Of a stretch of 64,000 bases of DNA, positions 551-56,989 are shown piece by piece. Under the pieces are notes generated by a model. The model worked only from the letters and a program-made list of their open reading frames with translations, was not told where the DNA came from and did not search any database. Where the stretch lies: positions 103,548,631-103,612,630 of the forward strand of contig NC_057717.1 in NCBI RefSeq assembly GCF_004010195.1, in the 5' to 3' direction. Both the position numbers and the translations under genes were made by a program. The stretch is from Chiloscyllium plagiosum. Its lineage: Eukaryota. Every line of letters begins with the position of its first letter. The first letter of the stretch is position 1.

Positions 551-608
551 CTGACTTGCGGCTCATCCGCTTCTCCCAGCCGGGCGGTAGCGGCTCCTCC
601 TCGGCCAT
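551..608 (-). CDS. PIN1: Peptidyl-prolyl isomerase PIN1, coding exon 1 (start of WW domain); the gene continues beyond the window start
   Basis: Reverse strand reads [19 protein letters not shown](G), matching the vertebrate PIN1 N-terminus [27 protein letters not shown] Kozak context; 58-nt exon followed by a G|GTAGCT donor; lies in a CpG island. Confidence 0.95.
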
Positions 609-1065
609 GGTCCCTGCTTCGACTGAGACGGGAGGCCCTCACCGGGACAACCGAACATGATTGTGGAGAGGATGTCCCGCCCTTCCATGCAAGTCCCGGA
701 CGCCATTGGGAGGCATGGACGTCACTCGGTTTCAAGCCGAGCTGAGGTCGGTCTGCCATTGGTTCATAGCGACGTCGGTCACTCTCGGGTTCCACCCCTT
801 TCATTGTTTCCTAACCTCTATTGGTTCATTCCGCCGTCAACCGGGGCGCTTCATGTCGGCGCGCGTTATCAGCCGCTTACAGGTATGTCAATCAAGGTGA
901 CACCCCGCCTCCTGCGTGCCACGCAACCGAACTTGCCGCCCGCCTCTGGTTCCGCCCTCTCGGACGTTCTGAGAACCCATTGCGCAAAATACATGTCCGT
1001 CAGAATCCCAGTACGCCGATTGGTCCGTGTAGGAGGGCAGGGAATGGAGGAGAGGACCGCCTAAT
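609..1065 (-). promoter_or_regulatory. PIN1: PIN1 5'UTR and CpG-island promoter
   Basis: CpG-dense; CCAAT boxes (ATTGG on + near 705, 758, 820, 1019); TGTCAATCA TALE-type site at 886; CCGGAA ETS-like core near 926. Confidence 0.7.
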
Positions 1066-1289
1066 CCGACACAAGTATTTGCAGAATTATATTTGCAAGA
1101 TGCATTCTATTTTGCTCTAAAATCCACAATCTGAAGGCAGTGAAAACATATAATATTTTGGAAATTCCACTTTGGAAATAAAACCAATCTGACTCAAGAT
1201 TGTTATACAGATTCTGACCTCACATCTTTAATGCATTGTCTGAGCTGAGATGTCACCTTTTGTTAAAAAACCTTAAGTTATCTCGATTT

Positions 1290-2155
1290 GGAGACAACAC
1301 CAGGTTATAGTCCAACAGGTTTATTTGGAAGCAATAGCTTTCAGAGCTCTGCTCCTTCATCAGGTGGTTGTGGAGTCCAAGATCGGAGGACACAGAATTT
1401 ATAGCAAAAGTTTACAGTGTGATGTAACTGAAATTATATATTGAAAAAGACTTGGATTGTTTGTTAAGTCGCTCATCTTTTAGAATGGGCATGTTGGTTT
1501 CAGTTCTTTCATTTGTAAATCCCAGAACTGAAAGTTACATTCTCGAGTGAACTTTAACAATAGGTGCCATGTTGGCTCAGATAATGTACTGAAGGTGTGA
1601 GGTGCCTTGTGTGAGGCTGCGTGTGTAGCCTGATTCTAATCTAAAAAAGGGATTTACAGAATCTTACACACACATACAGGCACAAACACACACACAGACT
1701 GCTGCAGACCCATACACTCTCACAGACCTCTCTCATATGCTCAGATATACACCCTGTCATACATGTATACCCCTTTACGCTCACACTCACACACATACAA
1801 ATACACACACTCATACCTACCCCCTTCCCCAGCGCGCGCGCACACACACACATATAAGTTTGTGGGGTGAATTTGTATTTGCAGGATTACATTTTATTTT
1901 GCTCAAAAACTGCATGAATCCATGTAAGATTCTGTAAATGCCCATTCTAAAAGATGAAGACTTAACAAACAATCCAGTTCTTCTTCAATATATAATCTCA
2001 GTTACACTGAAAGTTTTCATCACAGTGAAAAGTTTTGCAATACATTCTGTGTCCTATGATCTTATATTCCACAACCACCTGATGAAGGAGCAGTGCTCTG
2101 AAAGTTAGTGTTTCCAAATAAACCTGTGGACTACAACCTGGTGTTGTGTGATTTG
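1290..2155. mobile_element. Non-autonomous Penelope-like element with long inverted terminal arms carrying hammerhead-like cores (family A)
   Basis: ACAACACCAGGTTATAGTCCAACAGG...CTCCTTCATCAGGTGGTTGTGG at the left is mirrored at 2069-2155; the inversion extends internally; central CA-rich tract 1660-1855. Confidence 0.75.
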
Positions 2156-2239
2156 AGAAGGTGACAGAAAAGAAATTCTAGGATTTACATATTAATAAAC
2201 TGAAACCTGCAACCCATTCTAGAAGAAGAAAGACTTAAC

Positions 2240-2950
2240 TTTACTACACCTCCTCCCACCCTGCCTCTTGTAAAAATGCTGTTTCTTATTCCCAATTCCT
2301 CCGCCTCCGCCGCAAAAGCTCCCAGGAGGACCAAATGCACAATAGAACATTTCAGGCCCCCTTCTTCAAAGACTACAATTTCCCCTCCCATGTGGTCAAC
2401 GATGCCCTCCAGCGTATCTCCTCCACTTCCTGTACCTCCTCCCTTGATCCCATCCCTCCAATCGCAATAGGGATAGAACGCCCCCCGGTCCTCACCTTCC
2501 AACCCACCAATCTCCGGATACATCACATCATCCTCCACCATTTCTGCCACCTACAAATAGACCCCACCACCAGGGATACATTTCCCTCCCCACCACTATC
2601 TGCATCCTGGAGAGACATTCCCCCATGACTCCTTTGTTAGGTCCAAACACCCGACCAACCCACCCTCCACTCCCGGCACCTTCCCTAGCCACCGCGAGAA
2701 GTGCAAAACCTGCACACGCACCTCCCCCCTCAACTCTGTCCAAGGTCCCACATCCAAAAGAGATTTATCCGTACTTCCATACAAATCATCTAATATATCC
2801 GTTGCTGTTGATGTGGTCTCCTCTACATTGAGGAGACAGGACTCCAACATTTCAGAGAACATCTCTAGGACACACGAACAACCCCAACACTCTGTGACCG
2901 AACACTTCAACTCCCCCTCACACTCCGCCCAGCACATGCAATTCCTGGGC
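2240..2950 (+). mobile_element. Decayed Penelope-like retroelement ORF 3' part (RT C-terminus / GIY-YIG region)
   Basis: Frameshifted ...CGLLYI(E)ET...FREHL...SVTEHFNSPSHSAQHMQFLG, similar to the clearer copy at 42860-43170. Confidence 0.8.
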
Positions 2951-3109
2951 TTCTATAAACTAGTGAGGATGCTGCCTGACCTGCTGCGCTTTTCCAGCAA
3001 CACATTTTCAGTTCTATAAACTAGTGTTGTGTGATTTTAAACTTTGACACAAGAAAAAATTGACATTAACTTTCTCTGTTCCACCGATTTGCCACCTTCC
3101 CAAACCACA

Positions 3110-3285
3110 CCAGTTGAAAAAGCACAGCAGGTCAGGCAGCATCTGAGGAGCAGGAAAACAGATGTTTCGGGCAAAAGTGAAAGGTCTTCAGGTCCTGATG
3201 GAGGCCTTTTGCCCGAAACGTCGATTTTCCTGCTCCTCAAATGCTACCTGACCTGCTGTGCTTTTCCAGCACCACTCTAATCTTG
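3110..3285. mobile_element. Short palindromic Penelope-derived insertion (family B)
   Basis: GAAAAAGCACAGCAGGTCAGGCAGCAT mirrored by ATGCTACCTGACCTGCTGTGCTTTTCC; degenerate CTGATGG...GCCCGAAACGTCG core. Confidence 0.75.
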
Positions 3286-3959
3286 AGCTTTATTTGGAAG
3301 CACTAGATTTCGAAGCACTGCTTCTTCATCAGGTGGTTGTGAAGCAGGATCATAAGACAGAATTTACAGCAAAGACTTACAGTGATACAATGATGCATAG
3401 AACAAATCTAGATTGTTTAGTCTTTCATCTTTTAGAATTGATTTGCTGGTTTCGGTTCTTTAATATGTAAATCCCAGAACTTCTTTTAAGTCACATTCTC
3501 AAGATAATTTAAAGGTGCCGGTGTTGGACTGGGGTGGACAAAGTTAAAATTCACACAACACCAGGTTATATTCCAACAGATTTATTTGTTTATTTCTGCT
3601 CCTTCATCAGATGGTTGTGGAGCAGAGTCGTAAGACACGGAATTTATAGCAACAGGAGTGCAATGTCATGGAATGTAATATTAAATAAATTTAGCTTAGT
3701 CTTTCATCTTTTAGGATGATCATGTTAGTTTTGGTTCCTTCATATGTAAACCCCAGAACTTTTTTAAAGTCACATTCTCAAGATAGCTTTTAACAATAGG
3801 TGTCATCTCAGCTCAGATAATGCATTGAAGGTGTGAAGTTAGAGTCTGTCTGTGTCCCAATGTTAGGTCAGACTGATTCTGTTTCTAAAGTGGGAGTTAC
3901 AGAATATTGCATGGATTTGCAGTTTTTCAGCTAAAATAAAATTGGAGCCCAGAGCGAGT

Positions 3960-4720
3960 CTGCGCTGTCTATCAGGGCCAATACAGGCTGTTGATTGGTG
4001 AAGAGGGCGGGACGACTGCTGTCCATCAGAACAAGACCGTCTGTTGATTGGTGTGTAATGCGAGACGAGCGCTGTCCATCAGCGCGGCCTCGAATGTCGA
4101 TTGGTGGAGAGGGCGCGACCACCACCGTTCGTCAGAACTAGGCTGTTGATTGGTGGGGAGGGTGGGACCACCGGTGTCCAACAGAACAACACCGTATGTT
4201 GATTGGTGAATAGGGCGGGACGAGCGCTGTCCATCAGAGCGGCCTCGAATGCCGATTGGTGGAGAGAGTGGGTCGGACAGGTTCCATCTGGGAGACCGTT
4301 CTGACAAAGTCGACTTGTCCAACCTCCTGACGCTGCCTGGCTTGCTATGTTCTTCCAGGCTCCTGCCTGTCCATCAGGGCGTCCGACGCTGTCGCTTGGC
4401 GGACAGGGCGGGACGACCCCCTGTCCATCAGGGCGATCCAGGCTGTCCATTGGCGAAGAACGCGGGACGACCGCTGTCCATCAGGGCATCTGAGGCTGTC
4501 GATTGGCGCAACTACCGCGGTTCTCAGACCCAGGCCGTCGATTGGTGGAGAGCGCGTGACAACCGCTGTCCATCAGGGCGTCGTCGAAAGCCGATTGGTG
4601 GGGAGGGCGGGACCGCCAGCTTCCATCCGGGAGACGGGGTCGCTGATTGGTGCAGTTGGCCGTCCGTCAGCCCCCACCCCAAGGCGGGGCGTGGCAGTTG
4701 TTAAGGGGCGGAGCTGCGGC
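3960..4720 (+). promoter_or_regulatory. UBL5: UBL5 CpG-island promoter built from about 13 degenerate ~53-bp modules (CTGTCCATCA, inverted CCAAT, GC box)
   Basis: GATTGG at 3993, 4046, 4099, 4148, 4201, 4254, 4501, 4540, 4593, 4645; CTGTCCATCA at 4019, 4072, 4227, 4367, 4421, 4474, 4566; several GGGCGG boxes; ends just before a GTAAGT donor at 4777. Confidence 0.8.
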
Positions 4721-4776
4721 CTAGTCGCCGTTGCTGAGTGAGAGCGATCCTGTGTCGTCGTGACGGGGGTAAGGCG
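4720..4776 (+). other. UBL5: UBL5 non-coding exon 1 (start approximate)
   Basis: Consensus donor CG|GTAAGT at 4777 at the edge of the CpG island; matching acceptor tttcctaag| at 8864, 11 nt before the ATG. Confidence 0.65.
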
Positions 4777-5109
4777 GTAAGTATCGATCTTCGTTGTGGT
4801 AAACACATCCCCCTCTCATCGTTGGTGTGACTATTCGTGTTTGTGAATAAACAGAGATTGAGTAACCCTCCCCCCTTCTGGAACCTTCTCCGCCCGTCGT
4901 TATTAACTCTTAAGTGTTTGTCTACTTTGGGGGCAGGCTGCTGTCGGTTGTAGGCCCTCGCTCCCCTTCCCCCCGTTGGGTTGGCGCTGAGTCAGTTGTA
5001 ATTGATCGATAATTTGCCGCTCAATAGTGAAGGGCTACTTTGTGGCCTGGTGGTAGTGTCCCTGTCTCTGGGCCAGGAGACCTGGGCTCCAAGTTGCAGC
5101 TTGCTCCTG

Positions 5110-8875: not shown

Positions 8876-8931
8876 ATGATTGAGATAGTTTGCAATGATC
8901 GTTTAGGGAAAAAAGTTCGAGTGAAGTGCAA
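8876..8931 (+). CDS. UBL5: Ubiquitin-like protein 5 (Hub1), coding exon 1
   Basis: [18 protein letters not shown](N); followed by the U12 donor GTATCCTTT. Confidence 0.97.
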
Positions 8932-10660: not shown

Positions 10661-10744
10661 TCCTGATGATACCATAAAAGATCTGAAGAAACTGATAGCT
10701 GCACAGACAGGAACAAAATGGAACAAGCTCGTCTTAAAAAAATG
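10661..10744 (+). CDS. UBL5: UBL5 coding exon 2
   Basis: (N)[27 protein letters not shown](W); 84 nt, phase-compatible with its neighbours. Confidence 0.97.
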
Positions 10745-11547: not shown

Positions 11548-11585
11548 GTATACAATTTTCAAGAATCATGTTCAGTTACAAGATT
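11548..11585 (+). CDS. UBL5: UBL5 coding exon 3
   Basis: (W)YTIFKNHVQLQD(Y); pyrimidine tract and CAG acceptor; 38 nt. Confidence 0.95.
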
Positions 11586-13878: not shown

Positions 13879-13922
13879 ATGAGATCCACGATGGAATGAA
13901 CTTGGAGCTGTACTACCAGTAA
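13879..13922 (+). CDS. UBL5: UBL5 last coding exon
   Basis: (Y)EIHDGMNLELYYQ* with the hallmark di-tyrosine C-terminus; the four exons total 222 nt (73 aa plus stop). Confidence 0.97.
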
Positions 13923-18815: not shown

Positions 18816-20297
18816 CTAAGGTATGTCTTGATCCTCAGATTCTGATATTCCTGTCTTGCATTGTTGTTCCAGACCAGTATTGCTGACTCCTGCATTCTCC
18901 CTGGGGCTTCTCGATGGTGATTCCGTGGCTTGGCTGGCCTTGATCAAATTGCCTGGATGGGGCACATGTTCTTCCACCTTTTCCACTATTTCAGTTGCCT
19001 GAGAGCGTGCAGAGGTGTTTGAGATTGCTTGTTCTTCTTCAGCATCTTCTGCCATTTTTCCAGATAATTTATCTGCTGTGCTGACTGGAATTTCACCTGT
19101 CCCTTCTGCTAATGGATCTAAGTGTGTGCCCTGATTCTCAGCTGAGTTTTCGAGACATTCTGGAAGATTTCTCAAGCACGTTGGAGCGTGCGCTTGGCAA
19201 GTATCTCGACTTTCTTCCGAACCCATGGCAGAAGTTTGTCGCCCTTTTCCGACACCTTTATTTTGGGTTTCTAAATCTGCGTCGATGTTTTCCAATATTT
19301 TCAAGTCAATCTCTGCTGGGGCTTTCAGTCCAGTTTTGATTTCTGTTGGCAGCTCTTCATCATAACACACACATGTATCAGCAGCTCCTCCTTGTGTTTC
19401 CTTAACCAATATGTCACCTTCGCTTGACTTACCATCATCTTGGCTAGCTACCATTGAGCCATTATCCGTATCTGAGTAGACTGGCAACTCTGTCTGCCCT
19501 GCAATATGTTTGGCATCTTTGCAACATTCTTCTTGCATGTCACTATTGTTCACACCTGTAGGAGTCTCATTTGTACTATCCGATACTTCTTGACAATCAG
19601 GCTCAACTCCTGCTTTAACCAGAATATCCGTTGCACCCCCTGAACCAGTTGGAATGGCTTCTGCTTTTCCAGTGGTCTTGGATCTTCCTACCTCAGCTAT
19701 ACATTGTACCTGGGAGTCTTCACATCCTTGAATGTTTTCTCTCATTGAACCATCCACAGAAGTGGAGAGTCCAATGTTCTCCATTGCCGTTAATGCTTCA
19801 ATCTCCTCTCTGTACCCCTGGCTTTCTGATTCTTGGAGATTAATTTGACCATCTTGTATAGATCGACCATCAATAGACAGTTCTTCTCTACAAGGGTCTT
19901 GGTCTGATTGTTCTGTCTTAAGTTCAACATCAGCCTGTAAGGAGGTTTCTTCAGGTTCCATTGCAGTCTGCACTGAGATATTCTCTTCAGATTCATTGTT
20001 TTCATTTCTTGCCTTGAGACCTGGATCTCCTTTACCTCCAAGAACTTCATTTCTTTCAGTCACTTGTTCTTCTTCAACAGTAATCTCTGCACCAGTTGCT
20101 TTTGCCAGTTGCACCTCCATAGCCATTGTTTCTTCAATTGCTTTGCTAATCTCAAATGGTTCTTCATTTATTGTGAGATCTCCAGATTCCTCTTTATTTG
20201 GCACGTCTTGATTTTCACACACACTAGGGGATATCATGACTGGATGTTCTTCTAGTCCCTGTTTGGTAATTTCCTGGGCACCTTCTACCTCTGCCAT
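18816..20297 (-). CDS. Uncharacterised 493-aa Glu/Asp/Gln/Ser/Thr-rich, probably intrinsically disordered protein encoded in one exon
   Basis: 1482-nt repeat-free ORF; AACATGG Kozak with an in-frame upstream TGA; acceptor (T)n-gcatttaagcag| at 20561; no domain recognised. Confidence 0.8.
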   Translation of the reverse strand: MAEVEGAQEITKQGLEEHPVMISPSVCENQDVPNKEESGDLTINEEPFEISKAIEETMAMEVQLAKATGAEITVEEEQVTERNEVLGGKGDPGLKARNENNESEENISVQTAMEPEETSLQADVELKTEQSDQDPCREELSIDGRSIQDGQINLQESESQGYREEIEALTAMENIGLSTSVDGSMRENIQGCEDSQVQCIAEVGRSKTTGKAEAIPTGSGGATDILVKAGVEPDCQEVSDSTNETPTGVNNSDMQEECCKDAKHIAGQTELPVYSDTDNGSMVASQDDGKSSEGDILVKETQGGAADTCVCYDEELPTEIKTGLKAPAEIDLKILENIDADLETQNKGVGKGRQTSAMGSEESRDTCQAHAPTCLRNLPECLENSAENQGTHLDPLAEGTGEIPVSTADKLSGKMAEDAEEEQAISNTSARSQATEIVEKVEEHVPHPGNLIKASQATESPSRSPRENAGVSNTGLEQQCKTGISESEDQDIP

Positions 20298-21375
20298 GTT
20301 TCTCTTGGATCCCAACAAGCCAAGATTTCAATTGTCGACGCACTGTTGCGGTCAGTTTAATAAATCTTCACAAATTTAATCTTCACTCTTTCCCAAACTT
20401 CTCAACCTGTCGTCCCTTTGTTCTTTTTCGGAGCAGAAAGTGGTTGTGTTAAAGCTGCTGCCTGGTGACAAATTTTGTTGACAGCACACCTGTGAAGAGC
20501 TTTGGAAGGTTTTGGTGCTATGGAAATGTAAATCGTTGCTGGGTTCTTTTGGAGAACTTCCTGCTTAAATGCAAAAAAAAGATTAATATGATTATGTTTA
20601 AAGACCAAATAAAGTTACTTGTTCAGGAATGCAAATACAACGTGGAATCCAGATGGCCCAAGTACACAGAATTTCTGTTTAACAAAGCACACCTTTTTGA
20701 ATATATGATTTTTCAATCTTCTCCTCTGTCTTTCCTGTTAGAATTTGCACAGCATGCACTTGGCAGGGGCCAATCAATTCTGCATGACCTTTTCTGAATC
20801 TCAAGGAGCTAATATCCGGATGTGTCTCGCCCTGATACGATGCATTAGTTTTGGATTCAGACTACATTTACATCACTGGCGTAGTATCTCAACAGCTTCA
20901 ATGTAAGTGTAATTGCAACACAAAGCTTTTCATTTCAGAATGGGCTGCTAACTTGCAAAGCATTGAGTTTTTGTGAGAGGATGTCAGAGATGGACACCGT
21001 TTAATAAAATGCTGGAAAATCCAGCGAAAGGAATTTGACAAAACCCACATTGATTCATGAGTTCTGTTCAACTGCACTTAGATTCTGAAATATCCCTGCG
21101 ACTGAACTCTGCTTACATTTCCATTTCTATATTAATGTAAGGTGTTCAATCTACAAAAAGTGTTAACAGAAATTTTTTTTTCTTCATTCAGGTATTAGTA
21201 GTTTATAACCTGGACTGAAATCGACCCCTAATGAAAACTGAATCTTCCATTTTCGTGCATGTACGGACACATCACTGCAGTTATTCTGAGGCTAGCATTT
21301 GCAATGTTGTGATTATTAACAGCTTGGCCACCATGGGGAGGAAGCATTTTGTTGCACAGTGTTTTTTCAAAGGTT

Positions 21376-29429: not shown

Positions 29430-30700
29430 CTTTCTGATTCAGTATGTGGATGTACCCACTAGAAAAGGTGCAAAACTTGACCTACTCTTGGGAGATAAGG
29501 CAGGGCAGGTGACTGAGGTGTCAGTGGGGGAGCACTTCGGGGCCAGCGACCATAGTTCTATTAGATTTAAAATAGTGATGGAACAGGATAGACCCCAGAT
29601 CTAAAAGTTCAAGTTCTAAATTGGACGAAGGCCAATTTTGACAGTATTAGGCAAGAACTTTCAAAAGCTGATTGGGGGCAGATGTTTGCAGGTAAAGGGA
29701 TGGCTGGAAAATGCGAAGCCTTAGAAATGAGATAACGAGAGCCCAGAGAAAGTATATTCCTGTCAGGGTGAAAGGGAAGGCTGGTAGGCATAGGGAATGC
29801 CAGTTGACTAAAGAAATTGAGGGTTTGGTTAAGAAAAAGAAGGAAGCATATGTCAGGTATAGACAGGATAGATCGAGTGAATCCTTAGAAGAGTATAAAG
29901 GAAGTAGGAGTATACTTAAGAGGGAAATCAGGAGGGCAAAATGGGGACATGAGATAGCTTTGGCAAATAGANNNNNNNNNNNNNNNNNNNNNNNNNNNNN
30001 NNNNNNNNNNNNNNNNNNNNNNNNNNNNNNNNNNNNNNNNNNNNNNNNNNNNNNNNNNNNNNNNNNNNNNNNNNNNNNNNNNNNNNNNNNNNNNNNNNNN
30101 NNNNNNNNNNNNNNNNNNNNNNNNNNNNNNNNNNNNNNNNNNNNNNNNNNNNNNNNNNNNNNNNNNNNNNNNNNNNNNNNNNNNNNNNNNNNNNNNNNNN
30201 NNNNNNNNNNNNNNNNNNNNNNNNNNNNNNNNNNNNNNNNNNNNNNNNNNNNNNNNNNNNNNNNNNNNNNNNNNNNNNNNNNNNNNNNNNNNNNNNNNNN
30301 NNNNNNNNNNNTGTTTTCCCTGGAGCATCAAAGGTTGAGGGGTGACCTTATAGAGGTTTACAAAATTTTGAGGGGGCACGGATAGGATAAAGTCTTTTCC
30401 CTGGGGTCGGGGAGTCCAGAACTAGAGGGCATAGGTTTAGGGTGAGAGGAGAAAGATATAAAAGAGATCTAGCGGGCAATTTTTCATGCAGAGGGTGGTA
30501 CGTGTATGGAATGAGGAAGTGGTGGAGGCTGGTACAATTGCAACATTTAAGAGGCATCTGGATGGGTATATGAATAGCAAGGGTTTGGAGGGATATGGGC
30601 CGGGTGCTGGCAGGTGGGACTAGATTGAGTTGGGATATCTGGTTGGCATGGATGGGTTGAACCAAAGGGTTTGTTTCTGTGCTGTACATCTCTATAACTC
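29430..30700 (+). mobile_element. CR1-type LINE spanning an assembly gap
   Basis: End of endonuclease region (LDLLLGDKAGQVTEV..SDH) before the gap and ORF2 C-terminus plus 3'UTR after it. Confidence 0.85.
29972..30311. other. Assembly gap (340 N)
   Basis: Run of N. Confidence 1.
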
Positions 30701-33193: not shown

Positions 33194-33412
33194 GACCCTA
33201 ATGGTCTGTGCTGTCTGATTCTGTATGACCCTAATGGTCTGTGCTGTCTGATTCTGTACGACCCTAATGGTCTGTACTGTCTGATTCTGTAAGACCCTAA
33301 TGGTCTGTGCTGTCTGATTTTGTAAGTCCTTAATGGCCTGTGCTGTCTGATTCTGTCAATCCTTAATGGTCTGTGCTGTCTGATTCTGTAAGGCCCTTGT
33401 GCTGTCTGATTC
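33194..33412. repeat. 33-bp minisatellite, about 6.5 copies
   Basis: Unit GACCCTAATGGTCTGTGCTGTCTGATTCTGTAN, head-to-tail without spacers. Confidence 0.95.
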
Positions 33413-46392: not shown

Positions 46393-46892
46393 NNNNNNNN
46401 NNNNNNNNNNNNNNNNNNNNNNNNNNNNNNNNNNNNNNNNNNNNNNNNNNNNNNNNNNNNNNNNNNNNNNNNNNNNNNNNNNNNNNNNNNNNNNNNNNNN
46501 NNNNNNNNNNNNNNNNNNNNNNNNNNNNNNNNNNNNNNNNNNNNNNNNNNNNNNNNNNNNNNNNNNNNNNNNNNNNNNNNNNNNNNNNNNNNNNNNNNNN
46601 NNNNNNNNNNNNNNNNNNNNNNNNNNNNNNNNNNNNNNNNNNNNNNNNNNNNNNNNNNNNNNNNNNNNNNNNNNNNNNNNNNNNNNNNNNNNNNNNNNNN
46701 NNNNNNNNNNNNNNNNNNNNNNNNNNNNNNNNNNNNNNNNNNNNNNNNNNNNNNNNNNNNNNNNNNNNNNNNNNNNNNNNNNNNNNNNNNNNNNNNNNNN
46801 NNNNNNNNNNNNNNNNNNNNNNNNNNNNNNNNNNNNNNNNNNNNNNNNNNNNNNNNNNNNNNNNNNNNNNNNNNNNNNNNNNNNNNNNNNNN
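46393..46892. other. Assembly gap (500 N), probably hiding VAV1 exons
   Basis: Run of N between phase-incompatible VAV1 exons. Confidence 0.95.
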
Positions 46893-48169: not shown

Positions 48170-49265
48170 GAGAGAATTCTAGAACACTGGTGTTTAACTG
48201 GGAGAATTCTGGCCTTTAAGTAGAGAAAATACTGGTCTTTCACTGGGAGAAATCTGGTCTTTAACTGGGAGAAATACTGATCTTTAATTGGGAGAACTCT
48301 GGTGTTTAATGGGAGAACTGTGTATGTTTAATTGGGAGAAATCTGGTCTTTAACTGGGAAATTTTGTCTTAAACTGGCAACAAATCTGGTCATTCACTGG
48401 GACGTATCTGGTATTTAACTGGGATAACTGGTCTTTAAGTGGTAGACCTCTGGTCATTAACTGGGAGAATACTGGTCTTTAATGGGAGAACACTGGTCTT
48501 TAACTGGGAGAAATCTGGCCTTTGGGTGAAATCTGGTCTTTAACTGGGAGAAATCTGGTATAAAACTGGGGAAAATCTGGTATTTAACTGGGAGAATGCT
48601 GGACTTTAATTGGGAAAAATCTGGTCTTTAACTGGGTGAAATCTGATCTTTAACAGATAGAAATCTGGTCTTTAACTGGGAGAACTCTTTTTTTTCTGGG
48701 AGAATACAGGTCTTTAACAGGGAAAATACTGGTCTTTAATGGGAGATCTCTGGTCTTTAACTGGGAGAAATCTGTTCTTTAATTGAGAGAAATCTGGTCT
48801 TTAACTGGGAGTACTCTCATCTTTAATTGGGAAACTCTGTCTCTAACTGGGAGAAATCTGGGTTTTAAACTGGGAGAAATCTGGGTTTTAAACTGGGAGA
48901 AATCTGGGCCTTTAACTGGGAGAACTCTGGTCATTCATTGGGAGGTATCTGGTCTTTAACTGGGAGATATACAGATCTTGAACTGGGAGAAATCTGGTCA
49001 TTCACTGAGAGAACTCTGACCTTTAAATGATAGAAATCTGATCTTTAACTGGAGGAACTCTGGTCTTTAATTGGGAGAAGTCTGAATATTTAACTGGGAG
49101 AACTCTGTCTTTAACTGCAAGAAATCTGTTTTTTTAACAGGGAGAACATTGGTCTTTAACTAGGAGAAATCTGGTCTTTAACAGGGTGAAGTCTGGGTCT
49201 TTAACTGGGACAACTCAGGGTATTTAACTGGGAGACATCTGGTCTTTAACTGGGAGAACTCTTTC
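48170..49265. repeat. ~22-bp tandem satellite (CTGGTCTTTAACTGGGAGAAAT), roughly 50 degenerate copies, in a VAV1 intron
   Basis: Contiguous head-to-tail units over 1.1 kb. Confidence 0.95.
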
Positions 49266-51139: not shown

Positions 51140-52020
51140 GTCATTAGAGTCATAGAGCTGTACAGCACGAAAACAGAACCTTTGACCCAACTCATCCATG
51201 CCAACCAGACATTGTAAACTAAGCTAGTTCCATTTGCCAGCATTTAGCCAGCATGCCCTATTCATATACCCATGCAGATGCCTTTTAAATGCTGTCATTG
51301 TACCAGCCACCACCACTTCATCTGGCAGCTCATTCTACATACGCACCACCCTCTGTGTGAAAACGTTGCCCCTTAGGTCTCTTTTAAATCTTTCCCCTCT
51401 CATCGTAAACCTCTGCCCTCTAGTTCTGCACTTCCCCCACCCCAGGGAAAAGACTTTGTCTATTTACCCTATCCATGGCCCTAATGATTTTATAAACGTC
51501 TATGAGGTCACCCCTCAGCCTCCAACGCTCCAGGGAAAACAGCCCCAGCTTGTTCATCTTCACTATCCTATCTACCTGCCACTCCACTTTCAAGGAGCCA
51601 TGAACCTGCACTCCAAGGTCTCTTTGTTCAACAACACTCCCTAGGACCTTACTATTAAGTGTCTAAGTCCTGCTCTGATTTGCTTTTCCAAAATGCAGCA
51701 CCTCACCTTTTATCTAAATTAAACTCCATCCGCCACTCCTCAGCCCACTGGCCCATCTGATCAAGATCCTGTCACAATCTGAGGTAACTTTCTTCACTGT
51801 CCACTACACCTCCAATTTTGGTATCATTTGCAAACTTACTAACTATACCTCCTACGTCCACATCCAAATCATTTATATAAATGATGAACAGCAGTGGACC
51901 CAGTACCAATCCTTGTGGCACACCACTGGTCACAGGCCTCCAATCCAAAAGCAACCCCTCCACCACCATTCTCTGTCTCCACCTATGAACCAGTTTTGCA
52001 TCCAAATGGATAGTTCTTCC
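51140..52020 (-). mobile_element. CR1 LINE RT and 3' fragments
   Basis: WRPVTSGVPQGLVLGPLLFIIYINDLD..SKFANDTKIGG. Confidence 0.9.
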
Positions 52021-52690
52021 TGTATTCCACATTACTATCACCAAATCCTCACCTTCAATGTCATGGGAGTTACCATTGAAACTGAACTGGATTAACCATG
52101 TAAACACCATGGCTATAAGAGCAGGTTAGAGGCTAAGAGTAATCCACCTCCTGACTCCCCAAAGCCTGTCCACCATCTACAAGGCACAAGTCAGGAGGGT
52201 GATGGAATACTCCCCACTTGTCTGGATGGTGGCAGCTCCAACAACACTCAAGAAGCTCTTCACCATCCAGGACAAAGCAGCCCATTTGATTGGCACTTCA
52301 TTCAGAAGCAACCACTCCCTCCATCTCTGACGCTCAGTAGCAGCAGTACCTAAGATGAACTGGAGAAATTCACCAAGGCTCCTTAAGCTGAAACTTCCAA
52401 ACCAGACACTTTTACCATCCAGAAAGACAAGGGCAGCAGATACATGGGAACAACACCCCCTGCAGGTTCCCCTCCAGGCTACTCACTATCCTGACTTGAA
52501 AATATATCGCCATTCCTTCAGTGTCACTGGGTCAAAATCCTGGAACTCCCTCCCTAATGACACTGTGGGTCAACCCACAGTAGGTCAATGTTCAAGATGG
52601 CAGCTCAACCCCACCTCCTCACGGGGCAACAAGGGATGGGCAATAAATGCTGACCCAGCCAGCTACGTCCACATCCCATGAAAGGATAGG
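52020..52690 (+). mobile_element. 3' end of a second LINE family (CR1/L2-like)
   Basis: LSTIYKAQVR.VMEYSPL.W...KSWNSLP C-terminal pattern and a GGGCAATAAATGCTG tail seen elsewhere in the window. Confidence 0.7.
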
Positions 52691-54562: not shown

Positions 54563-55565
54563 CTGTAAATAAAACAACATGAGTAAGATTTAAAACCAGA
54601 AGGAAAAAGCAGTATGTTTCTGACCAGTGACTATCTCACTAACTAGACAGTCTTTGTTACTATGATCACTAGAACTCTATAGATGTGCACTTGCAATGCC
54701 AAGACATACAAGGCTATGGGCCAAGTGCAGGAAAATGGGTTTAGAATAGTTAGGTGGGTAGTTTTGACCAGGTTAGACACATTGGGTCTTCCCCCTGCTC
54801 TAAGATTCTATCTAAAATTCGCCAGAGCACCAGGAAGATCTCCCCTTTCATTTTACCTGTTCCAACCACAGGGTCTAAGTGCCATGCCCCATCCAAACTC
54901 CTGCACCTCAGACAATGCAGCACTCCTTGGGTACTGCACTGGAGTATCTGCACTACAGAAGTTGTGTTCAAATCTCTGGAGGAGGACTTGAATCCACGAC
55001 AAATGATGCCGGGGGCAAGAGTGTTATTCACGGAATCAAACTAAATGAAGGTTTTAAACGTCCAGCCAATATGCAAATCTGACAATATCAGGACACTGAA
55101 AAGAACAAATGTTGGAGATCTCAGCAGGTCAGGCACTATCCATGGAGAGAGAGCAAGGTCAAGTTTCCCGTCTGGATTGATTCTTCATCAGTAAGGTTAG
55201 CTTGCTCTCTCTCCATGAATGCTGCATGACCCATTGTGATCTCCAGCATTTGTTGTTTTCAGTACAGATTCCAGCATCTGCAGTAATTCGCCCCTATAAT
55301 ATCAGGAGGCTGCTTGTTACTGCAACATCCCATTATCACAAGCCTCCTGACCAGGTTAAGGTGGTTAGATTGGCTCGACCTTCAGGCTCACTGGGCGACT
55401 GAGTTGGTGTAAGAGGACAATGCCAGCAAAGCAAAGAGCTGTGGATGCTGGAGATCTGAAACCAAAAGAGACATTGCTGGCGAGACTCATCACAAAGGGT
55501 CACTGGACTCGAAGCGTTAACTCTGTTTTCTCCCCACAGATGCTGCCAGACCAACTGAGTCTCAC

Positions 55566-55657
55566 CTTGCCTTCCACACGGAGCGACCCTCCCTAAACAT
55601 TCCTTGTGAGCTGCGGACTTGCACTTGCTGCAGCGATAACCCTGGAAGAAGGTGCCC
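55566..55657 (-). CDS. VAV1: VAV1 C1 zinc-finger exon 2
   Basis: [30 protein letters not shown]; 92 nt. Confidence 0.95.
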
Positions 55658-56989
55658 CTGTTGGGTGACAGAACAGCGAGAGGGCATTGATTTCAGACCA
55701 ATGTCACTGTTAAACTTGCAGAGAGAAGTTTTAGACCACAAAGGCTCCATATGACAAAAAAGATATACAGGCAAGTGTAGGAAAGGATTAACTGAGAGGT
55801 TATACTCACCAGGAAAGTTTGGAGCTCCCTTCTCAAGGAGGGAGGCCTGGTTGAGGTCTTTAGAAAGACTGTTTTACAATAGAAATATGGTAGAAATTCA
55901 CTTGCAGGTGAGATTGGGACTATAAATACCAGACAGCCACTAATAAATCCAATTAGGAATTCAGGAGAGGTATCTTTACCTGTTCTACGGTCTACTGTAA
56001 AGATGTGTTTCAGGTCAGGTAAAGTCTCCATAGTTTCATTATAGAGAGACAACTGAGGCTTAACCTGAGGGTCACCATGCCTCAGGTGAGGGGAGAGGTT
56101 GAGAGGGAGCGTCCTCCATGGTAACCTCAGCTGGTGCAGGAATTGAAACTGCTCTGTTGGAGTCACTGTACAGCCAACCAGGTAAAAACAATGACTGCAG
56201 ATGCTGGAAACCAGATTCTGGATTCGTGGTGCTGGAAGAGCACAGCAGTTCAGGCAGCATCCGAGGAGCTGCGAAATCGACGTTTCGGGCAAAAGCCCTT
56301 CATCAGGAATAAAGGCAGTGAGCCTGAAGCGTGGAGAGAACCAGCCAACTGAGCTAACTGACTCCTACACTTAGGGCGCTTCATAAACAGATGATGAGAG
56401 GAAAGGAATTAGATGGCTATGTTGGTAGAGTGAGATGCAGAGGGTTCAGGAGGGGAAATTAAACACCAGCACAGACCAAACAGCTAAGTAAGAATTGTAC
56501 TGGTCATGCCAACATGGCCACCTGCCCATCCCGTTAGAGCAGAGGTCAGTCTTGCCATTACATTGCCATGGGAGTTACCACCTCTCTGGCCTCGTCCCAT
56601 TGTCTACTGTCCCCTCCCCCTGCAGCCCCAACCCCCCACTTCCCACATGACTCGCTGCACCCTTTCACCAGCAGCAAGTCAGCCATAACATGCTGCCCAG
56701 TGGATTTCGCCATCCCCTGACATTTTCAGTGAGGCTGGTACTTGATGGGAAAGCTGTGTATCGGGGCAGGCGCGGTCGCTAGGCTATCCTGGCCGAGCCT
56801 TGGGGACGAACATAGATAAGTCATACACAACTTTGTAATGTTCAGAGTTACTGCAGGTGGCGATAGTGAGCAGTACAGCTCACCATTCTCCTGTTGCGTC
56901 ACCTGCAGAAATCAGGCTCATTGACAACCTCAGTAATTGCCAATCTCCAATTTTCTCCATTACATTTACATTCTATTGAGACTGTAACA

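Follow-up and report, generated by a model that had tools for sequence, protein, structure and literature searches.

A tandem array of selectively retained CCAAT and DECA sites in the UBL5 promoter region of Chiloscyllium plagiosum

The CpG island directly upstream of UBL5 in Chiloscyllium plagiosum carries a tandem array of units of about 53 bp, in which a CCAAT box and, in most units, a DECA site 22 bp upstream of it have been selectively retained while the intervening sequence diverged. The array was analysed within a 64,000-nucleotide stretch of DNA (the window). The explanation that we consider probable is that a host promoter was amplified stepwise under purifying selection on its NF-Y and PBX/PREP sites, and that the product may act as a redundant upstream activator. 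The parts of the array are:

3941..4669, minus strand: tandem array of units of about 53 bp, with one CCAAT box per unit (minus strand), most with a TGATGGACAG-type DECA 22 bp upstream
3941, 3994, 4047, 4100, 4149, 4202, 4255, 4395 (broken), 4449, 4502, 4541, 4594, 4646: CCAAT-type boxes (ATTGG on the plus strand)
3965, 4019, 4072, 4227, 4367, 4421, 4474, 4566: full DECA decamers
3941..4295, minus strand: distal block of seven boxes, including a younger 155-bp duplication
4296..4364, no strand: interruption within the 140-bp gap, not alignable to array units above chance
4365..4645, minus strand: proximal block of five boxes, holding the broken 4395 box (23-bp spacing) and a short 39-bp unit
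4646..4669, minus strand: gene-proximal canonical DECA-CCAAT module (GAnnGAC-11 bp-CCAAT), an exact match

Thirteen CCAAT-type boxes lie between 3941 and 4646, all on the same strand (the plus strand of the array reads 12 ATTGG vs one CCAAT), and all except one are intact pentamers. The gaps between them are 53, 53, 53, 49, 53, 53, 140, 54, 53, 39, 53 and 52 bp. Tandem amplification, as the original prediction proposed, is borne out by TRF, with scores of 227 (period 53, 3988-4238) and 191 (period 54, 4366-4508), by nested duplications, and by an nhmmer unit profile that matches 12 units at E 1e-13 to 2.5e-5 in the 64-kb window, having been trained on 11 of those 12 units. The window holds no second array, its only other profile match with E<1 falling at 994-1024, and eight of the nine TGAnnGACAG decamers in the 64 kb are inside the array. 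The expectation that spacers had diverged while motifs persisted also held, mean pairwise identity of the units being 89% in DECA and CCAAT columns and 57% in spacer columns. At the level of single sites, the CCAAT positions were recovered as GATTGG at 3993, 4046, 4099, 4148, 4201 and 4254 (gaps 53, 53, 49, 53, 53) and in a second run at 4540, 4593 and 4645 (gaps 53, 52), with a further GATTGG at 4501, and the seven copies of CTGTCCATCA in the window are exactly the seven listed at the outset. The boxes at 4394 and 4448 had both been called variants: the first is indeed broken (CTTGG, at 4394/4395), but the second has an intact ATTGG core and differs in its flank alone. The run does not start at 3993 as had been thought, since there is a thirteenth box 53 bp ahead of 3994, at 3941, bordering a repeat block. 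The interruption at 4296-4364 gave no nhmmer match, and its alignment score was reached by 105 of 300 shuffles in a run whose gap costs were permissive; no DECA match occurs in the short unit of 39 bp, 4502-4541. A coding or RNA explanation of the array was rejected, as four open reading frames over it had no Pfam match and no Rfam family matched anywhere in the window at gathering thresholds.

To compare rates among columns, 12 units were hand-aligned over 53 columns and curated on the boxes, with parts of five units masked; box 3941 was left out of the alignment because its upstream side is repeat-derived. Motif columns were set beforehand from the literature consensus. On the 12-unit tree, parsimony changes per column amount to 0.2 for CCAAT (one change across five columns), 0.9 for DECA, 1.4 for the NF-Y flanks, 1.83 for GGGCGG and 2.15 for the spacer. 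Assuming one tree, though the units may have recombined, and for an array delimited by motif persistence, DECA and CCAAT together are slower than a uniform-rate null with P 0.001-0.003 (12 or 9 units; CpG multipliers of 1, 5 and 10), and DECA alone with P 0.002-0.042. The null consisted of 1000 uniform-rate simulations per setting, and the 9-unit set omits three gap-anchored units. The comparison of motif with spacer that had been asked for thus came out with slower CCAAT and DECA columns (P<=0.003), while uniform divergence, the pattern of a neutral minisatellite and the outcome named as contrary, was absent under every mutation model tried. The slowness of the motifs persists within column classes (A/T, p 0.0007; G/C, p 0.04; non-CpG, p 0.0001); when a 10+5-column mask is placed freely, only six of 2067 positions are equally conserved, and under circular shifts the fixed mask ranks second of 53. 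General rate heterogeneity is modest (log-likelihood -430.7 for K2P vs -427.8 for K2P+G), and the signal is specific to the motif columns rather than a product of that heterogeneity. The array is therefore non-neutral, its CCAAT and DECA sites having been selectively retained. Within DECA, uncontacted positions change at 1.0 steps per column vs 0.6 for contacted ones; being nearly as slow, they leave room for another factor that could read the DECA block.

The GC box behaves differently from these two motifs. The original prediction included an Sp component, with GGGCGG often following CCAAT, but GGGCGG is present after only 4 of the 13 boxes (4005, 4213, 4406, 4605), and its rate of change, like that of the 10-base GC box, is the same as in the spacer. 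Neither was slower than the null (P 0.72-0.87 for GGGCGG, P 0.33-0.56 for the 10-base box); a 7-base sub-block is slow, with P 0.32-0.45 after correction for its post hoc choice. An Sp box as a third selected site is ruled out by these rate tests (P 0.3-0.9).

CRS1 of CYP17 is a TGATGGACAG site. That TGATGGACAG-type decamers are bound by PREP, as had been stated, agrees with the ChIP-confirmed PREP1 site of this sequence at TMPO, according to the accessible part of that report (PMC9098460). In the accessible portions of the literature, the DECA-CCAAT composite is bound by PBX/PREP, NF-Y and Sp2 (bioRxiv 10.64898/2026.02.16.706105; PMC7793273; PMC6023610; bioRxiv 10.1101/720102), and the element is given as GAnnGAC-11 bp-CCAAT on one strand (bioRxiv 10.64898/2026.02.16.706105; PMC7793273). 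The 27-bp pairing originally described places DECA downstream of CCAAT, in non-canonical orientation; taken in canonical order, the distance is 22 bp. This spacing is found at 9 of the 12 upstream boxes (five exact, four with one DECA mismatch); it is 23 at the broken box and 21 at the edge box, and the short unit has no site. Counted over all 13 boxes, a DECA core lies upstream on the same strand exactly at eight and with one mismatch at four, with none in phase for 4502. The array units thus share with the canonical element its two motifs, strand, order (DECA upstream) and promoter location, while differing in the distance, 11 bp there vs 22 bp in the homologous tandem units. Not one of the 12 upstream boxes has an 11-bp site (3-5 mismatches of 5), and a GC-rich stretch occupies the canonical DECA position. 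Exact 11-bp modules occur only at 4646, 705 and 758, three among 175 boxes in the window vs 0.13 expected, and all three lie within two promoter islands. By their sequence, then, the units would work like TALE/NF-Y modules yet fall outside the canonical element, because the 12 upstream boxes have no 11-bp site. The distance of 22 bp is the canonical 11 bp plus one turn. In the modelling of the bioRxiv study, the Sp2 bridge is lost at 13 bp, and 22 bp is not among the distances modelled in the part of the text available (bioRxiv 10.64898/2026.02.16.706105).

The placement of the array at the UBL5 promoter was confirmed: it takes up the 5′ portion of the CpG island at 4001-5000 (o/e 0.87-0.93), directly upstream of a verified UBL5 gene, whose exon 10662-10742 matches PDB UBL5 at E 2e-10. 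The surrounding features are:

4720..4776, plus strand: presumed non-coding UBL5 exon 1, with a donor GT at 4769 or 4777 and a putative start site
8876-8931, 10661-10744, 11548-11585, 13879-13922, plus strand: UBL5 coding exons (73 aa, open frame)
4705..4714, plus strand: GC box beyond the repeat, near the presumed start site (GGGCGG at 4706), a putative Sp site
551..608, minus strand: first coding exon of PIN1, with the beginning of the WW domain; PIN1 and UBL5 are head-to-head
705..842, minus strand: PIN1 promoter, with canonical 11-bp DECA-CCAAT, exact at 705 and 758 and with one mismatch at 820
1071..3943, no strand: dispersed-repeat block between the PIN1 and UBL5 islands, abutting the first box of the array

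That head-to-head genes flank the array follows from the minus-strand exon 608-551, which aligns to the PIN1 N-terminus (residues 1-20 to residues 1-20 of PDB PIN1, E 6e-6), although multi-WW ligases outscore PIN1 overall through several partial stretches. A second CpG island (1-1070) covers the PIN1 side. The boxes of the PIN1 promoter are 53 and 62 bp apart and oriented as in the array, with an identity to the array consensus of 0.27-0.38 outside the box. Of the 2.9-kb repeat block, 64% is covered by BLAST matches elsewhere in the window, vs 0% for 600-1070 and for 4721-5050. Its segment 3883-3942 is an inverted match of 1891-1952, its ends are mutually inverted (1152-1268 vs 3908-3788, 78%), and four open reading frames in it have no Pfam match; its family may be Penelope-like. 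Two UBL5 introns start GTATCCTT and GTATCTTT, with CCTTAAC branch-point-like motifs near acceptors (8932, 10639, 11586, 13858), which fits the U12 type. Elsewhere in the window, a second GC-rich tandem array, rich in GC boxes (30-bp period, 5.5 copies), occupies 1-158 in PIN1 intron 1 and is cut by the window edge, and minisatellites lie at 48187-49262 (22 bp x 49, used as a rough control) and 33194-33397 (33 bp x 6). On the minus strand there are a 503-codon open frame at 18819-20327 (acidic, of low complexity, with no Pfam match), which is probably a large exon of a downstream gene, a C1 (diacylglycerol-binding) domain fragment at 55339-55692 (E 4e-6) and a reverse-transcriptase fragment at 51775-52125 (E 1e-5). 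Assembly gaps (runs of N) at 29972-30311 and 46393-46892 are distant from the array.

Within the array, pairwise unit identity ranges from 51 to 89%, and a 155-bp duplication (3985-4111 vs 4140-4266) is 87% identical. The units group as (4047, 4202), (4100, 4255, 4594), (4395, 4502) and (4449, 4541) in an unsupported ML tree, and these groups, together with the nested duplications, fit stepwise growth. In each unit (3966-4665), the DECA and CCAAT blocks both begin CTGT(C/T) with few differences, 22 and 31 bp apart, and the unit itself may descend from a shorter duplication (blocks compared by eye). Homology of the PIN1 promoter to the array was discarded, as under stricter scoring 20-437 of 500 shuffles scored as high as its local alignments. 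One lead remains, the other local alignments from that promoter not rising above shuffles:

979..1024, minus strand: suggestive only, a possible remnant of a unit resembling those of the array, on the side of the repeat block that faces PIN1

In this region the HMM match at 994-1024 has E 0.0014, a score reached by none of 500 shuffles, and the global alignment of 979-1024 to unit 4502-4541 (the best of 11 units) was reached by 2 of 1000. Local alignments of 979-1024 to the array were not significant, and with motifs masked the signal is gone (112 of 300 shuffles, run with lax gap costs). The similarity may come from shared motifs only.

Under the amplification of a host promoter that we consider probable, the founder would have been a host promoter segment with a single CCAAT box and a single DECA site, which successive rounds of head-to-tail copying brought to about 13 units; both sites were then maintained in most copies by purifying selection, as the rate tests show within this locus. 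Support for a host origin comes from the PIN1 promoter, where these two motifs recur, oriented alike, at box spacings of 53 and 62 bp. From known NF-Y biology, we infer that NF-Y would sit on each box and cover about half of each unit: in the accessible parts of the sources, it bends DNA by 80 degrees with ~30 bp of contacts (bioRxiv 10.64898/2026.02.16.706105), and the contacts span -7 to +17 (PMC4982600). PBX/PREP would then bind DECA in the free linker beyond the NF-Y footprint. Since a linker DECA at 22 bp lies on about the canonical helix face, one turn away, side-by-side binding is probable without a short Sp2 bridge. The start site may be set by the module closest to it, the canonical and presumably Sp2-bridged one at 4646. 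The array could activate UBL5, and possibly PIN1, from upstream in a redundant, dosage-type manner, and might keep ~700 bp open beside the repeat block as a nucleosome-free buffer.

The rate test reads the same for selection in the host and for selection in an ancestral mobile element. The main rival, which we judge unlikely, takes the array to be a solo LTR's U3 enhancer, of LTR12/ERV-9 type, exapted as the UBL5 promoter with its divergence and motif conservation inherited. The available account of LTR12 U3 describes 5-17 tandem units of ~41 nt in four subtypes, and, as in the array, diverged subunits with conserved CCAAT and partner sites upstream of a start site; it differs in its 41-nt units, GATA/MZF1 partners and retroviral LTR, vs 53-nt units, TALE sites and a housekeeping gene with no LTR feature shown here (PMC11853044). 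In MER57 LTRs, NF-Y is found with TALE factors in non-canonical geometry, as far as the accessible text goes (PMC12065363). An AATAAA at 4846, downstream of the presumed start, would be compatible with an LTR; the left end abuts the repeats and is cut by them, which leaves any LTR ends unreadable. No TATA occurs in 4601-4800. Against an LTR, neither the array nor 4721-5050 has a copy elsewhere in the 64 kb (a comparison of weak power), and no retroviral domain was found among 58 open reading frames of >=88 aa, the RT fragment at 51775-52125 and the C1 domain being the only matches. Moreover, the same motif grammar and orientation recur at the non-repeated PIN1 promoter, with its possible relic unit, and the nested duplications, which differ in age, are in keeping with growth in place.

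A bolder reading, which we hold to be improbable, is that DECA-22 bp-CCAAT would be a second functional TALE/NF-Y geometry, with another bridge or none, and that the array would be a nucleosome-free lattice under selection, its DNA curved by in-phase NF-Y bends (~80 degrees) in runs of 3-4; it would have expanded from an ancestral PIN1-UBL5 bidirectional promoter as repeats separated the genes.

The full original model, a phased TALE/NF-Y/Sp lattice on one helix face with selection on the 53-bp period, is in our judgement rather unlikely. Gaps are near-constant, about 8 of the 12 being exactly 53 bp and two more 52 or 54, and PIN1 has an independent 53-bp box pair; a constant period is, however, the default outcome of tandem copying. 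At 10.5 bp/turn, 53 bp is 5.05 turns, and neighbouring direct-repeat boxes lie at whole helical turns (about 9 of 12 gaps at 52-53 bp), although 12 of the 81 periods from 20 to 100 bp (~15%) come to within 0.5 bp of a whole number of turns. At three breaks the phase shifts by -120, +120 and -103 degrees (10.5 bp/turn), and rather than about 13 sites sharing one helix face, as had been suggested, only 8 of 13 boxes are within 60 degrees of the proximal one (10.5 bp/turn). Whole-array phasing was rejected, with coherence (R 0.40-0.51) inside the tandem-copying null (P 0.29-0.54); the GC box, moreover, is not conserved. Phasing of neighbours is plausible and already known, given the 5.05 turns and the peaks of human promoter CCAAT pairs at 31, 41, 52 and 63 bp in the accessible part of one source (PMC4982600), and the period is compatible with in-phase NF-Y neighbours in runs of 3-4 boxes, not array-wide. 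The 53-bp period of the array falls beside the 52-bp maximum in that series, whereas it is near none of the peaks listed in the accessible part of another (19, 24-27, 36 and 43 bp; PMC4889920). The in-phase multi-CCAAT promoters described there likewise have direct repeats with GC-rich sites between boxes, but these are pairs or small arrays, as opposed to 13 boxes by recognisable duplication (PMC4982600, PMC4889920). As for selection on length, 6-7 indel events were counted vs 7-14 expected, a range set by the assumed substitution:indel ratio. Repeat copies in the window show ~10 substitutions per indel (796:80, 15 non-redundant pairs), which predicts 11.5 indels (P 0.06-0.11); the deficit holds if local ratios of 8-10 apply (P 0.01-0.11) and vanishes at 13-16 (P 0.23-0.58). 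One hint of a spacing constraint is that only the broken, edge and short units depart from the 22-bp interval, the other interval varying by +1, -4 and -1.

That the array is a neutral minisatellite, GC-rich and located within a CpG island, grown from a founder unit that carried the motifs by chance, is very improbable and largely refuted: the locus does make such repeats (the 30-bp GC-box array at 1-158), and the 22-bp control array is also uneven by column (mismatch 0.02-0.49, 47 units), but the slow columns are motifs predefined from the literature, and they are slow under every mutation model tried.

The ingredients of the amplified promoter are known, namely NF-Y/TALE composites, phased CCAAT pairs, tandem CCAAT enhancers in LTRs and duplication-born sites, and it is their combination that is unusual. 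The origin of binding sites through local duplication of sequence is established, in the accessible portion of a study of fly modules (PMC3188502); there, too, neighbouring sites have a common origin, but the evidence is a statistical signal up to ~50 bp, vs a two-site module present ~13 times with both sites retained. Our literature search, whose coverage excludes most subscription journals, figures and preprint supplements, found no account of this or a comparable array in a fish housekeeping promoter and no paper joining shark, promoter, CCAAT, tandem repeat and NF-Y. A search on the PIN1/UBL5 bidirectional promoter gave nothing on this promoter among the matches listed, and one on VNTR and NF-Y gave nothing related.

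A dozen paralogous modules amount to a phylogenetic footprint inside one promoter. This footprint singles out a 22-bp DECA-CCAAT spacing on which the current 11-bp Sp2-bridge model is silent, and, with its internal controls (the canonical modules at 4646, 705 and 758), the locus can test whether TALE/NF-Y cooperation is helix-periodic or limited by linker length.
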